NCBI GenBank assembly: GCA_045613345.1
Contig: JAZLAT010000031.1
Location: 50,722 to 114,721, forward strand
DNA length: 64,000 nt
Reading direction: 5' to 3'
DNA from: Candidatus Enterousia sp.
GTDB lineage: Bacteria; Pseudomonadota; Alphaproteobacteria; Rs-D84
Shown here: one piece after another, positions 8,792 to 52,826 of the stretch
Layout of the letters: every line of letters begins with the position of its first letter
Position numbering within the stretch: the stretch's first letter is position 1
Translations under genes and position numbers: made by a program
The notes under the pieces: model-generated
Told to the model about the DNA's origin: nothing
Database searches by the model: none
The model's input: only the letters and a program-made list of their open reading frames with translations

Positions 8792-8867
8792 TCCGGCATA
8801 GCTCAGTCGGTAGAGCACTTGACTGTTAATCAAGGTGTCACTGGTTCGAGTCCAGTTGCCGGAGCCA
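8792..8867 (+). tRNA. tRNA-Asn(GTT)
   Basis: 76-nt cloverleaf TCCGGCA...CTGTTAA...GGTTCGAGTCC...TGCCGGAGCCA with an upstream TTGACT/TATATT promoter. Confidence 0.97.
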
Positions 8868-14126: not shown

Positions 14127-14156
14127 TTGACCCATTTCCGCAAATTTTGCTAGCAT
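14127..14156 (+). promoter_or_regulatory. Sigma70-type promoter of RNA leader A
   Basis: TTGACC-N18-TAGCAT; same spacing and TTTGC-TA as the promoters of copies B and C. Confidence 0.6.
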
Positions 14157-14163
14157 AAAAGAC

Positions 14164-14378
14164 GAATCGAATGGGAATTCGGTTTGGGGCCTGAGAAGCC
14201 CATAAAACACCGGCACATTATGTCGTAATCCACAAAAATTTCGATTTTTTGTGCCGTGATTCTGTTTAACCCCGCGTTGGGGTGCCATTGGTTATAATGC
14301 ATTCACGCAAAAGGCCTTTGGGGTCATTGTGTTTTATGATTTCTCAACACCCCGACATGTCGTTCGACGTGTTTGTTT
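14164..14378 (+). ncRNA. Unassigned structured leader RNA, copy A
   Basis: Stems covary with 28292-28512 and 52610-52789; conserved GGGGTGC, ATGATT and ACACCCCGAC. Confidence 0.75.
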
Positions 14379-14412
14379 AATGGTTAACGAAAAGAACAAA
14401 GGGAGTTAAATC

Positions 14413-15564
14413 ATGAAGAAATTTATAATCGCGGTTATGTGTGCGTTCTGTGTCGTGGGTGCATACGCCGCGGGTGAAAATGAACGCGCAACTTCGGTGG
14501 GCTATGTTGCCGAAGAATTAGAAACACGCCAAGACAAATTCAACAAATTGGGTGCCGATACCGCAATGACTTACAGTGGTTCAACCGATGGTGCGATTGG
14601 TACGTGTACTATCACGGGCGATTTGGGCGCGGAAACAAATACAACAAATACTGCGTTACCGACGGTTGGTGCGGTAAATACAAAAGTTGCAAACAAACAA
14701 GATGAATTGAACTTTGCGGCGAATACGGTTTTGATGGATACCGGTATTTCGGGCGAACCCGCCGCCAAAGGCATTTATCAATCGTCGGGTGATTATAATA
14801 CTCAAACAGATTCGCTTGTTGAAGCGGCGACTTTTAATGCGGCACTGCAAAATGCAATAAACAGTGAATTCACATGCGCACAACGCAAAGACCCCAACGA
14901 CCCCACCAGTAAATGTTTATTATTCAACATCTTTGCCCCGACACAAAATCTGATAATTCCAAACACATATACGCGGTTGGAATATTTGGAAAGCACTGGG
15001 ACCGAGTATATAGACAGCGGTGTAGAAGCGAAACCCGGCACCGTGGTCAAAACCAAATTTCAGATAATAGGAACGCCACCATCTAACACCGATAGAGGAT
15101 TTTTGGGATGTTATGGTTCATCTGGTTACCCATCATATTATTTATATCTGCATACTTTTCATGGTTCAGTTATCAATTCTTGGTTAGGAACAGGAGTAAA
15201 CAGCTTGTTTGTTCCGGATCACGATGAACACACACTTGAATTTGATGAAAATGGTAATGTCAATTTTGATGGAACACATATAGACAGTAATGTTTATGCG
15301 AACAGCATTGATGGTCCGAATATCGGGATATTTCGGTCCATACATCTTTATAGCTACACTATGCCATCAGTGGCATCAAGATTCTATTATGTGAAATTAG
15401 ATAATGGCACAATCAGACGCGACTTTATCCCCGCAAAACGCAACAGTGACGGCGAATTGGGGATGTATGACACGGTGTCGGGAACTTTCTTTACAAATGC
15501 GGGGACCGGAACATTTATTGCCGGACCAGAGCTCAGTTCAAATATTTATTTGCCGATGAATTAG
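14413..15564 (+). CDS. Secreted fibre/adhesin-like protein, paralog A
   Basis: Signal peptide; conserved N-terminal stalk; C-terminal YTRLEYLESTGTEYID...FIPAKRNSDGELGMYDTVSGTFFTNAGTGTF domain. Confidence 0.7.
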   Translation: MKKFIIAVMCAFCVVGAYAAGENERATSVGYVAEELETRQDKFNKLGADTAMTYSGSTDGAIGTCTITGDLGAETNTTNTALPTVGAVNTKVANKQDELNFAANTVLMDTGISGEPAAKGIYQSSGDYNTQTDSLVEAATFNAALQNAINSEFTCAQRKDPNDPTSKCLLFNIFAPTQNLIIPNTYTRLEYLESTGTEYIDSGVEAKPGTVVKTKFQIIGTPPSNTDRGFLGCYGSSGYPSYYLYLHTFHGSVINSWLGTGVNSLFVPDHDEHTLEFDENGNVNFDGTHIDSNVYANSIDGPNIGIFRSIHLYSYTMPSVASRFYYVKLDNGTIRRDFIPAKRNSDGELGMYDTVSGTFFTNAGTGTFIAGPELSSNIYLPMN

Positions 15565-28254: not shown

Positions 28255-28284
28255 TTGCATTTATTTTCCTGTTTTTGCTAAACT
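28255..28284 (+). promoter_or_regulatory. Promoter of RNA leader B
   Basis: TTGCAT-N18-TAAACT. Confidence 0.55.
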
Positions 28285-28291
28285 GTCCATT

Positions 28292-28512
28292 GAATCGAAC
28301 GAGGGTTTGGTTCGGGGCTGTAGCGGCCTGTACTAGTTCGGTGCATTTTGTTCATCGTTATCCTGCGATTTTTCACATTTTGCACCGTGATTTAATTCCC
28401 TGACTGGTTCGGGGTGCCGATGGATATACCAAAGGTTTTACCAAAGTCCATCGGAATCACATAACTAGTATGATTCGCTAACACCCCGACCGTCATTTAG
28501 ACGGTTTGATTT
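28292..28512 (+). ncRNA. Unassigned structured leader RNA, copy B
   Basis: Same stem architecture as copies A and C, with compensatory changes. Confidence 0.75.
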
Positions 28513-28552
28513 AGTGTAAGTGGTTAGTGTAAGGAACAAAGGGAGTTAAATT

Positions 28553-29359
28553 ATGAAAAAAGTTTTATTTGCAATTATATGTTTGTTTTGTGTATGTGGC
28601 GCACGTGCGGCAAATGAAAATGCGGCAACAAGTAAAGAATATGTTGATACAGAACTTGCCACAAAACAGCCAACAATCCCCGCGGCGGGTGATAATGTCG
28701 TTATGACATTTGATTCAAACGCCACTGATGGCATAGGGACAAAAAATATTTATGACCCGTCGGGCGATTATGCATCACAGACGGACGCACTTGTCACCGC
28801 CGCAACGGCGAACGCCGCCGTTCAAATGGCAATAAATGGTGAATTTTATTGCAAAGAATGGAGTACCATCGTCGAAAACGATTGCTGGCTTTGGGGTATA
28901 AAAAGCGAATTACACAACAGCCCAAACCTTTTGTGCACCGTATCGGCTCGAGAAATTGCTTCGTTTGATCCACAAACATCGATTATGTCCAATACCTATA
29001 CAGATACCAGAGATCATGTACAGTTATGTTTATTCCATTCCAACGGTATCGTCGTTGCGGGTTCGGGTATTGGATGTATAGATTTGTTAGATGCTGGTCA
29101 AACCAAGCATTATCATTTTACTAGCGCGAATGACAGCGACCATATACAAATAAAACATAATGGTAAAGCACGGGATTTTCGCCTGTGGTTTCCGGTGGAA
29201 CCCTCCACAGAATATACATTCGTTGCCAAGGCACTAAGTGTTGACCCAACCACAATCGGTGGAATGCAGGTGCAAATAATGTTGGTGCCCGGCAATTACA
29301 CCGGCGATGAAATTATTCCATGCGGACAGAATATATATATCCCACAGAACCAGCAATAG
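28553..29359 (+). CDS. Secreted fibre/adhesin-like protein, paralog B (different C-terminal domain)
   Basis: Signal peptide plus AANENAATSKEYVDTELATKQPTI...AVQMAINGEF.C; C-terminus unrelated to the other paralogs. Confidence 0.7.
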   Translation: MKKVLFAIICLFCVCGARAANENAATSKEYVDTELATKQPTIPAAGDNVVMTFDSNATDGIGTKNIYDPSGDYASQTDALVTAATANAAVQMAINGEFYCKEWSTIVENDCWLWGIKSELHNSPNLLCTVSAREIASFDPQTSIMSNTYTDTRDHVQLCLFHSNGIVVAGSGIGCIDLLDAGQTKHYHFTSANDSDHIQIKHNGKARDFRLWFPVEPSTEYTFVAKALSVDPTTIGGMQVQIMLVPGNYTGDEIIPCGQNIYIPQNQQ

Positions 29360-43372: not shown

Positions 43373-43448
43373 TGGTGGAGCTGATCGGACTCGAACCGAC
43401 GACCCCTTGCATGCCATGCAAGTGCTCTACCAACTGAGCTACAACCCC
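43373..43448 (-). tRNA. tRNA-Ala(GGC)
   Basis: Reverse complement GGGGTTGTAGCTCAGTTGGTAGAGC...TGGCA...GGTTCGAGTCC...CTCCACCA, 76 nt. Confidence 0.97.
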
Positions 43449-51251: not shown

Positions 51252-51596
51252 ATGGATTCTTATAAAACTGGATTATTTTCGGAATTTTTGGCATGTGTGT
51301 ATCTGGTGTTGCACGGATTTCGGATTGTTCGGCGGCGATACACGACGGGTCGCAATACAAATCGTGCCGAGATAGATATCATCGCGCGTCGTGGAAATTT
51401 AATCGTATTTGTCGAGGTTAAAAAACGCAAAACCATCACCGCGGCATTTGACGCGATAACTGTGCCGCAAATTCGACGGCTGCGTGCGGCGGCAGAAACA
51501 TATTTGTTAAAGACTCATTGGCGTGGCGACGCACGATTTGATGTAATAATAATTCATAACGGTTACCGAATTAAATGGATTTGTGGCGCGATTTAA
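51252..51596 (+). CDS. yraN: YraN (UPF0102) nuclease
   Basis: G...E..A..YL...G, EIDIIA...LIVFVEVK and RFDV motifs. Confidence 0.9.
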   Translation: MDSYKTGLFSEFLACVYLVLHGFRIVRRRYTTGRNTNRAEIDIIARRGNLIVFVEVKKRKTITAAFDAITVPQIRRLRAAAETYLLKTHWRGDARFDVIIIHNGYRIKWICGAI

Positions 51597-52588
51597 TTCG
51601 CATGTCCCGTATAAACACCACTGATGAATTTGCCGGTGCCTTGGTTGGTCAGGAAATTTCCAGATACCGTATCGTACATACCAATTTCACCGTCGCTATC
51701 CCGTCGCGCAGGAATTAAATTCATTTTCCCATCAACCCGAAAATAATATATGCGCATAATACGACATACGGTATTGGGGTTGTATTCTACCTGTGTTCTA
51801 AATAACCATGCATTCTTTGTCGGAGTATATAAATAGTTTGAAGCTGTGATCTCAGTATTGTACCATGTTATCTGGGGGGTTAATATGGGGGCTTTAAATG
51901 GATTTCCATACCAGTTTATTGTATATGGTGTGCCAATCTCACAAGGAGATGCCGCATAATAATAACGTGCATGCAAGTTAGTATTGGACGTTGAATAAAT
52001 CATAAATACTAGGTTGTTTACGCTCGGATAAGAAAATGAGAACTTTGGACTGCGCCAATCGTCGCCATCACTGGCACCAAACCATTCGCAAGTTCCGTCA
52101 TCCAAATATGCGAATTTCGCGGTTATATTCTCACCCGAACCAATTGGTTGGCCAAGATCAATATATTCTTTACCCGTTGCGTTTTCAATATACGGTAATG
52201 CGGTGTATCCCGCGGGCAAAGTGCGTTCGGGAACACTGTTCAAATTCCAAAGCCAACAATCCGTGGGATTGTCTGGGACATACATTCCACATGTCAATTC
52301 GCCGTTCAGTGCCATTTGCACCGCGCCATTTGCCGTTGCCGCGGTCACCAGTGCAGTTTCTTGCGTGGAATAAGATGCGCTTTCATCGTAAATATTTTTT
52401 GTGCCGATACCGTCCGTCGCGGTTGAATCAAAGGTCATTACAACATCATTACCCGCCGCGGGGATTGTTGGTTGTTTTGTAGCAAGTTCCGCATCAACAT
52501 ATTCTTTGCTTGTTGCCGCATTGTTGTTTTCGGCATATGCACCGAATGCACACAACGCACACATAATCGCAATTATAAATTTTTTCAT
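51593..52588 (-). CDS. Secreted fibre/adhesin-like protein, paralog C
   Basis: Same N-terminal stalk; LPAGYTALPYIEN...LIPARRDSDGEIGMYDTVSGNFLTNQGTG.F. Confidence 0.7.
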   Translation of the reverse strand: MKKFIIAIMCALCAFGAYAENNNAATSKEYVDAELATKQPTIPAAGNDVVMTFDSTATDGIGTKNIYDESASYSTQETALVTAATANGAVQMALNGELTCGMYVPDNPTDCWLWNLNSVPERTLPAGYTALPYIENATGKEYIDLGQPIGSGENITAKFAYLDDGTCEWFGASDGDDWRSPKFSFSYPSVNNLVFMIYSTSNTNLHARYYYAASPCEIGTPYTINWYGNPFKAPILTPQITWYNTEITASNYLYTPTKNAWLFRTQVEYNPNTVCRIMRIYYFRVDGKMNLIPARRDSDGEIGMYDTVSGNFLTNQGTGKFISGVYTGHAN

Positions 52589-52609: not shown

Positions 52610-52789
52610 AAAAACCGATGTCTAAAAGACATGTCGGGGTGTTCGTAAATCATAAGAGTATAATTCCAGCGGTCTTTTGCAAAGCATTATAACCAACTGC
52701 ACCCCGATATGGGGCATAAAACCAAATGGTGTTTTTCACCTTACTCTTATGGGCCTACGACGACCCCGAATCGAAATCCTGTTCGACTC
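52610..52789 (-). ncRNA. Unassigned structured leader RNA, copy C (shortest)
   Basis: Same architecture as A and B; the variable stem is reduced to GGTG-AAAAA-CACC. Confidence 0.75.
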
Positions 52790-52796
52790 TGACTTT

Positions 52797-52826
52797 AACT
52801 TAGCAAATTATGAAATCCCAAGTCAA
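52797..52826 (-). promoter_or_regulatory. Promoter of RNA leader C
   Basis: TTGACT-N18-TAAGTT on the minus strand. Confidence 0.55.

Follow-up and report, generated by a model that had tools for sequence, protein, structure and literature searches.

A terminator-coupled leader RNA with two predicted states, related to sRNA-Xcc1, upstream of exported-protein genes in Candidatus Enterousia

The RNA sRNA-Xcc1 (Rfam family RF02221) is treated, in the available parts of the relevant reports, as a trans-acting small RNA (sRNA) of about 88 nt and of unknown mechanism (PMC2996969; 10.1101/2025.06.18.660453; 10.1101/2020.03.17.996009; PMC12189769). The same portions of these reports place it upstream of symE in integron cassettes, in phage and in Xylella clusters; the ~88-nt RNA was demonstrated in Xanthomonas by Northern blot and end mapping (PMC2996969, in part), and in Xylella its homologues are transcribed from clusters of several copies (PMC12189769, in part). 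Here we describe an RNA element whose 3' half resembles sRNA-Xcc1 and which leads three genes in a stretch of 64,000 nucleotides of Candidatus Enterousia sp. (GCA_045613345.1, contig JAZLAT010000031.1, positions 50,722 to 114,721, forward strand), hereafter the window. The Rs-D84/Enterousia lineage to which this bacterium belongs is described as partner-dependent in the available part of PMC12306168, and the assembly comprises 1.07 Mb in 33 contigs with 42% G+C and 93.6% completeness. We propose, with a probability of roughly 0.5, that this cis-acting leader RNA of about 160–215 nt would serve as a two-state transcription attenuator for exported-protein genes. That the element is a functional structured leader RNA is held with high confidence. 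In our reading it is a two-state, terminator-coupled leader related to sRNA-Xcc1; the attenuator interpretation is supported in outline, and the switch itself is predicted from sequence.

The first-pass annotation recorded an unassigned multi-stem RNA motif in three copies, and these lie where it placed them: counted to the invariant string ACACCCCGAC, copy A occupies 14164–14356 (+; 193 nt from P0 to C2), copy B 28292–28490 (+; 199 nt) and copy C 52633–52789 (−; 157 nt, with a short P4). The count itself was too low. A covariance model, R1, built from 30 copies of this genome, scores the three at 182.6, 140.1 and 130.7 bits, respectively, and yields 34 matches in the genome, 33 of full length and one truncated at the 5' end; the invariant 10-mer likewise occurs 34 times, 31 of them inside leader copies. 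Searched in relatives, the model finds the RNA throughout the order and beyond. Of 151 genomes sampled within the order, 127 gave matches (111/121 in family f1, 13/19 in f3, 2/4 in f2 and 0/6 in f4–f6), roughly 900 in total, with up to 49 in one relative; with one genome taken per family across the class, 10 of 149 other alphaproteobacterial families also gave a match, including genomes of 2–3.5 Mb. Bit scores range from 117 to 196 in this genome and from 24 to 158 elsewhere; the E-values of R1 are rough.

The nested fold of copy A, supported by its R1 score, its minimum free energy (MFE) structure and pair counts, begins with the hairpin P0 at the predicted transcript start (14164–14185, UGGGA loop; all coordinates of copy A are on the forward strand). 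The segment 14186–14201 holds G1 (GGGGCC), P2a (UGAGAAG) and Cx (GCCC) and provides the 5' strands of P1 and P2. It is followed by P3a, the 5' strand of the hypervariable stem P3 (14201–14210), by P4, a hairpin of variable length (14211–14256; 13 nt in copy C), by P5, a CCCC/GGGG hairpin formed by C1, its loop and G2 (14270–14284), and by P6, a long hairpin whose internal loop, UUAUAAU opposite AAAAG, is conserved (14285–14321). GGUCAU, P3b, AUGAUU and P2b (14322–14346) contain the 3' strands of P3 and P2, and C2 (CACCCCGAC; 14348–14356) closes P1 with its CCCC. The first-pass annotation had stated that all three copies fold identically. MFE prediction returns the described stems for copies A (z = -2.9) and C (z = -4.0), and the fold of copy B (z = -4.2) differs in part.

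Covariation was assessed in an alignment of 82 copies from at least 30 genomes (30 copies from this genome, 19 from other genomes of the genus, one from a named metagenome-assembled genome and 32 from two other families), to which the counts over copies below refer. Because this alignment was fitted to the nested structure, the statistics of the nested fold lean towards that structure. Its pairs are formed in 91.4% of cells, against 68.7% in shuffles; 0/500 shuffles reach any of the five measures, and controls with slid strands pair at 37–51%. The compensatory changes reported from three copies are borne out in this larger set, as 48 of the 51 pairs have changed on both sides, including 9/9 in P0 and 10/10 in P3, and most positions of P2 and P3 show three or four pair types. 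G-U wobbles fit the sense strand only, as had been noted (pair 53:403 is GU in 53 copies and 64:400 is UG in 42), and the strings GGGGTGC, ATGATT and ACACCCCGAC, invariant in the window, are nearly so in the 30 genome copies. A GNRA-type tetraloop closes P0 in 39 of 78 copies (GGGA in 21, GAGA in 15; alignment columns 1–36), which hints at a tertiary docking contact. A small leader-peptide open reading frame (ORF), an invertible DNA segment and a K-turn in the internal loop between P1 and P2 were also considered from the sequence; none is conserved, and these readings were dropped.

The stems listed in the first-pass annotation thus hold, and two further covarying helices, PA and Px, had escaped it. 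PA is a 9-bp helix in which GUYGGGGNG, that is G2 (the 3' arm of P5) and two more bases (UG in copy A), pairs with the whole of the 3' end C2, CNCCCCGAC. Its pairs are formed in 95.5% of 727 cells, against 88.8 ± 0.6% in shuffles (0/500 reach this value; slid controls 42–55%), and six of the nine have changed on both sides. The pair in the toehold, i.e., the two G2 bases left unpaired in P5, is A-U in 36 copies, U-A in 34 and G-U in 8, and compensations extend over several bases, as in UUGGGGGAG with CUCCCCCAA and GUCGGGAAG with CUUCCCGAC. PA is incompatible with both P5 and P1. In Px, to which the alignment was not fitted, G1 and the next two bases pair with the bases following P2a. The pairings include GGGC/GCCC, GGUC/GACC, GGGA/UCCC, GGCA/UGCC, GGAAU/AUUCC and GAGG/CCUC; pair 44:53 is CG in 45 copies, UA in 10, GC in 6, AU in 5 and UG in 5, and pair 43:58 is GC in 49 and AU in 9. 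Px is incompatible with P1 and with the last two pairs of P2, and it places the core of P2a, 5 nt long, in a loop that resembles a U-turn, with U in 82/82 copies and a purine two bases later in 78/82. In antisense systems, fast RNA–RNA pairing begins at loops resembling this pattern. A third alternative hairpin, Hx, could form from the conserved RRUCAU (GGUCAU in copy A) and AUGAUU with P3b in its loop; it is paired in 88.8% of cells, and isolated compensations occur (UCG/CGA, and GGCCG/CGGUU in a distant family).

The predicted link between these helices and gene expression lies at the 3' end, where the terminator-like hairpin with a U-rich tail reported for the three window copies is present after each of them and is followed by the ribosome-binding site (RBS) and the ATG. 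In copy A it spans 14354–14381 (+), its 5' arm beginning with the GAC of C2; in copy B it reads GACCGUC...GACGGUU (28488–28514, +; rejected by a strict scanner); and in copy C CCGA-CAUGUC...GACAU-CGG precedes UUUUU and overlaps the CCGAC of C2 (52607–52637, −). In 63 of the 82 copies the hairpin has its start among the last bases of C2 and at least four U in the 8 nt behind it (28/30 in this genome, 1/1 for L079, 17/19 in other genomes of the genus and 17/32 in the two other families). In relatives the terminator is of textbook form, with GACCGCC...GGCGGUC ahead of a run of U. One and the same GAC closes PA and forms the base of the terminator stem, and in a distant family the GCC at the end of C2, the GGC at the start of G2 and the GGC of the terminator 3' arm change together. 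Since the terminator begins inside the last bases of PA, PA would act as an antiterminator. As for the hallmarks of transcriptional riboswitches, a covarying structured domain is present in the 5' untranslated region (UTR), with a predicted promoter 7 nt upstream, and the terminator shares bases with an alternative helix in 63 copies and does not in 19.

We hypothesize that the leader is transcribed from its own sigma-70-type promoter and can adopt two states. State II would be the nested fold, with P1 (G1–C2), P2, P3, P4, P5 (C1–G2) and P6; it would leave GAC, the last three bases of C2, free, so that the adjoining terminator could form and transcription would stop. In State I, G1 would be kept in the local hairpin Px with P2a in the U-turn-like loop, and G2 would leave C1 and pair with all of C2 as PA, the toehold bases offering C2 its first contact. 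PA would then enclose P6, and possibly Hx, in a 3' domain built like sRNA-Xcc1, and by taking the bottom pairs of the terminator stem beside the U tract it would let polymerase read through into the gene. Folding with PA forced returned exactly Px, P4, PA, P6 and Hx. A factor favoring the less stable State I, whether a small molecule, a protein or a processing enzyme, would make the leader an 'on' switch. The helices, their covariation and mutual exclusivity, the terminators and the gene context are direct observations; the switching between states, the assignment of the 'on' state and the stabilizing factor are inferred, and the specific role of PA as the antiterminator is put at about one half.

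Several results weigh against this model. In the nearest-neighbor model, the mean energy of State II is 10.3 kcal/mol lower than that of State I (range -8.9 to +22.8), so State I would need outside stabilization or a kinetic route. P1 is short, with four pairs, and is paired in 89% of cells in an alignment that was fitted to it. The covariation of Hx does not exceed that of shuffles, of which 105/500 reach its paired percentage. In 19 of the 82 copies, mostly of family f3, no terminator satisfying the above definition overlaps C2, the hairpin of some f3 copies starting just past C2 or having no U tract; direct competition between PA and the terminator is therefore not universal. P2b, which would be the junction strand in State I, is variable, and this speaks against a conserved pocket for a small molecule at that place. 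Among conceivable partners, the 93.6% complete genome gave no matches to GGDEF, RelA/SpoT or Hfq, and NusG is present as one copy with no paralog.

The first-pass annotation had proposed a novel riboswitch, attenuator or protein-binding leader that selects which surface-fiber paralog is expressed. Given a structured sense-strand leader, a terminator and no Rfam match at threshold, an attenuator or riboswitch-like reading is reasonable, and this part is supported in outline; the choice among paralogs is unsupported, because the same switch parts recur in every copy and no feature suited to mutual exclusion was seen. The parts shared by all copies are G1, Cx, C1, G2, C2 and P6, from which it appears most likely that all these genes for surface and secreted proteins are regulated together. 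A more far-reaching version remains tentative: the leader may be an orphan riboswitch-like 'RNA regulon', in which one sensor placed before 3–5% of genes would switch the exported repertoire by a single signal, perhaps from a partner cell, and of which sRNA-Xcc1 would be just the 3' domain.

The kinship with sRNA-Xcc1 had gone unnoticed. The absence of an Rfam family at gathering score, on which the novelty of the element had been made to depend, holds for the leader in the window, where the two tRNA genes at 8792–8864 (+) and 43376–43448 (−) are the sole matches at that level, and a permissive scan of copy A returned chance-level rows with no RF02221 at E up to 10. In relatives, permissive scans align RF02221 end to end with the last ~90 nt of the leader at 30.2–36.1 bits, and three weak matches of 19.5–22.3 bits occur in this genome. 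As all of these fall below the threshold of 53 bits, the RNA is not a member by Rfam's rule. The alignment in relatives sets the closing helix of RF02221, a 9-bp helix that is part of the Rfam consensus structure, on PA, and its first hairpin on P6. The internal loop of P6 reads AUACAAC...AAAG in relatives, and AUAAU...AAAAG, UAUAUAUAAAG or AUAC/AUAG-type variants in this genome. RF02221 itself was found in 26 of 151 sampled alphaproteobacterial genomes at E ≤ 0.01, five of them above threshold (the tally includes genome G202, which is flagged as unpublished and is used for no other claim). R1 recovers one of ten RF02221 loci (18.2 bits). Read by eye, the upstream sequence of seven of the ten alphaproteobacterial loci holds a hairpin like Px and strands able to pair with P2b and P3b, and in five of the ten at most 2/200 shuffles pair as well by duplex energy; in three of the ten the upstream partner is not evident, one of these having only 72 nt of upstream sequence. 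These weak scores, the upstream reading and the duplex energies suggest that a larger leader is probably represented in the Rfam model by its 3' domain only, and that the RNA described here is probably a divergent, greatly amplified branch of that leader. The literature searched does not describe the extended leader; the supplementary tables of the sRNA-Xcc1 papers, which lay outside that search, might list leader-like contexts. In a 2-Mb alphaproteobacterial genome, locus L089 (G176:C1:749239-752323) carries three above-threshold RF02221 matches exactly 994 nt apart, a tandem array in which each unit consists of a leader and a gene.

Directly after the closing helix, N-CCA occurs in 6 of the 10 RF02221 loci (L087, L090–L093, L095), with ACCA shifted by one base in two more, and NN-CCA in 9 of the 19 genus relatives (L032–L034, L038, L044–L047); no CCA follows PA in the 30 copies of this genome. 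Such an end is tRNA-acceptor-like and, by analogy, might be an RNase P signal, an idea that derives from the c4 RNA of phages P1 and P7. This c4 antisense RNA, also present in relatives of these phages, is a small Y-shaped RNA within the leader of the operon it controls, and its variable specificity segments match sequences elsewhere in the same transcript. The c4 family of Rfam is named in Table 4 of PMC12189769. No Rfam c4 match appeared in the scans of the window, copy A or the relatives. A second, c4-like target site was also sought and rejected: with 25 of the 82 copies dropped for short flanks or a short P3b, a P3a-like 8–9-mer (≤1 mismatch) lies within 300 nt downstream in 5/57, against 9.0 expected from cross-pairs. 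At one RF02221 locus, L093 (G248:C1:977044-980130), a second P2a/P3a-like sequence stands at the RBS, ~20–50 nt past the match; there the variable 3' strands could also mask the RBS, a pattern that is not general in the order studied.

The promoters agree with the earlier reading. Read by eye, the 5' hairpin of each window copy starts 7 nt after an extended -10 element, TGnTAnnnT, which itself lies 18 nt after TTGACC, TTGCAT or TTGACT, and this position is kept across an alignment of 31 genome copies. A consensus scanner scored a promoter and a terminator for copy A alone, copies B and C falling below its thresholds. The predicted promoter of copy A (14127–14156, +) combines TTGACC with the TG-extended TAGCAT, and the promoter-like sequences, read by eye, are TTGCAT with TG-extended TAAACT for copy B (28255–28284, +) and TTGACT with TG-extended TAAGTT for copy C (52797–52826, −), each pair with an 18-nt spacer. 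Public sequencing runs with the locus were of DNA type, with shares of at most 0.35, and none was of RNA type.

Every copy lies directly upstream of a gene, with the RBS 40–70 nt past the terminator, and all 82 have the same orientation relative to their own gene. In the window, copy A is followed by an RBS (AAGGGAG) and a gene for a 383-aa signal-peptide protein (14399–15564, +; ATG at 14413), copy B by a 268-aa signal-peptide paralog (28553–29359, +) and copy C by a 331-aa one with a β-sandwich C-terminal domain (51593–52588, −). The claim that the element leads paralogous secreted-protein genes is right for this genome, whose downstream paralogs all have a signal peptide and a conserved N-terminal part and vary in the C-terminal domain; in relatives unrelated exported proteins are led as well, among them lipoproteins, small cysteine-rich secreted proteins and an outer-membrane-protein-like and a nuclease-like protein, along with a few non-exported ones. 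By a simple heuristic, the product has a hydrophobic N-terminus in 65 of the 70 downstream ORFs called for the 82 copies, and a lipobox in 11. The genes behind two leaders, L032 and L074:520-684, lack a signal peptide; by eye, the product of one is methyltransferase-like and that of the other helix-turn-helix-like. The three window proteins matched no Pfam, PHROG or NCBIfam family, and 84 homologues of the protein encoded downstream of copy C carry neither a name nor a Pfam domain. In its structural model, the N-terminal ~120 residues are poorly modelled and residues ~120–325 form a confident β-sandwich, for which Foldseek against the PDB returned weak laminin-G/lectin-like matches (best E 1.3e-3; TM about 0.5 by target length). 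With matches this weak, the 'surface fiber' of the first-pass annotation is not shown; a secreted, lectin-like binding protein is a lead suggested by the model.

Variants of the leader occur within the genome (G000). Among L026 (G000:C31:114342-116141), L011 (G000:C15:31567-33366) and L027 (G000:C33:38141-39940), all of them decayed copies, a full leader is followed by no more than a 41-aa remnant with the C-terminal motif of the family and another by just a 25-aa frame, whereas the 5' half of a third is missing and no gene of the paralog family comes after it. In a subtype formed by L015, L016 and L024 (contigs C18, C20 and C31), two hairpins replace P4, the second of which, GACGCC..GGCGUC with a U run, resembles a terminator within the leader; the downstream proteins belong to a different subfamily.

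Other explanations of the element were weighed against the attenuator. The leader might instead be a source of stable sRNA, terminating at its own terminator and releasing the 3' domain (PA, P6 and Hx) as a trans-acting sRNA-Xcc1-like RNA, with gene control secondary. The end-to-end alignment of the 3' half with RF02221 at 30–36 bits in relatives, the ~88-nt RNA detected in Xanthomonas (PMC2996969, in part) and the transcribed multi-copy clusters of Xylella (PMC12189769, in part) fit this view, as would the CCA ends if they could invite RNase P. However, such ends are missing from all 30 copies of this genome, every copy is directly upstream of a gene with its RBS shortly past the terminator, the variable single-stranded parts are complementary to their own copy, with second downstream sites below expectation (5/57 against 9.0), and Hfq was not found in the 93.6% complete genome; we regard this origin as unlikely. 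A constitutive structural 5' UTR, which would stabilize mRNAs or tune translation with no switching and whose alternative helices would be folding intermediates, seems improbable for a different reason: a canonical terminator lies inside the leader in 63/82 copies, PA and Px show covariation even though neither can coexist with the stable fold, and the toehold bases, useless to a pure stabilizer, are conserved. It would nevertheless account for the hairpin P0 at the very 5' end, for a nested fold so stable that it is the predicted MFE structure in most copies, and for genes encoding exported, probably abundant proteins; long structured stabilizing leaders are known for outer-membrane and S-layer genes.

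That the leader picks a single expressed paralog, through mutually exclusive or phase-variable expression, is very improbable. The many paralogs with variable C-terminal domains and the copy-specific P2 and P3 would suit such a device, yet the sensor-like parts are the same from copy to copy, all 82 leaders point the same way relative to their gene, and neither an invertible segment nor a slippery repeat nor a single expression site common to the copies was seen; the leaders of relatives, moreover, precede unrelated genes (lipoproteins, nuclease-like and outer-membrane-protein-like proteins). It is hardly credible that the element acts as a DNA-level repeat, such as a recombination site or a mobile promoter cassette, and not as a functional RNA: multi-copy and dispersed as it is, with RF02221 relatives in integron cassettes, phages and islands according to the available parts of 10.1101/2025.06.18.660453, 10.1101/2020.03.17.996009 and PMC12189769, it shows G-U pairs on the sense strand only, extensive compensatory changes and a fixed position between promoter and RBS, and neither flanking direct repeats nor an association with transposases was noticed.

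The leader RNA may be the main gene-control device of these bacteria with ~1-Mb genomes, and it precedes dozens of genes for surface and secreted proteins, the likeliest mediators of contact with partner cells. As a sequence-defined, predicted two-state RNA with three covarying pairs of competing helices, it suits termination assays and screens for ligands or proteins. If RF02221, as suggested here, shows only part of a larger leader and misses a 5' half that competes with it, the copies in Xanthomonas, Xylella, phages and integron cassettes would have to be reinterpreted. Should the 'RNA regulon' prove true, a genome-reduced, partner-dependent gut bacterium would switch its exported-protein repertoire by one signal, and the sRNA-Xcc1 of plant pathogens, phages and integron cassettes would be a mere 3' domain of a widespread two-state cis-regulator.

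Three described systems come closest. Like riboswitch-type attenuators, the leader has a conserved, covarying multi-helix domain in the 5' UTR and helices that exclude one another, one of which has bases in common with an intrinsic terminator; it differs in that no known aptamer class matches, the core being unlike any Rfam riboswitch at E up to 10, and in that its more complex fold is the less stable one. The c4 RNA is comparable as an RNA embedded in a leader with variable segments that confer specificity. With sRNA-Xcc1 the leader has in common a G/C-rich closing helix of 9 bp and, in the alignments of relatives, a first hairpin with an AUACAA..AA-type internal loop, a putative second hairpin and a short junction ahead of the closing strand, as well as multi-copy occurrence in some genomes directly upstream of genes. 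However, the Rfam model of sRNA-Xcc1 is 87 nt long and filed as a trans-acting sRNA gene, whereas here the corresponding domain makes up the last ~85 nt of a ~190-nt leader that also has a terminator and a 5' half competing with that domain; new with respect to sRNA-Xcc1 are the copy number (34 in this genome and up to 49 matches in one relative) and the exported-protein context.

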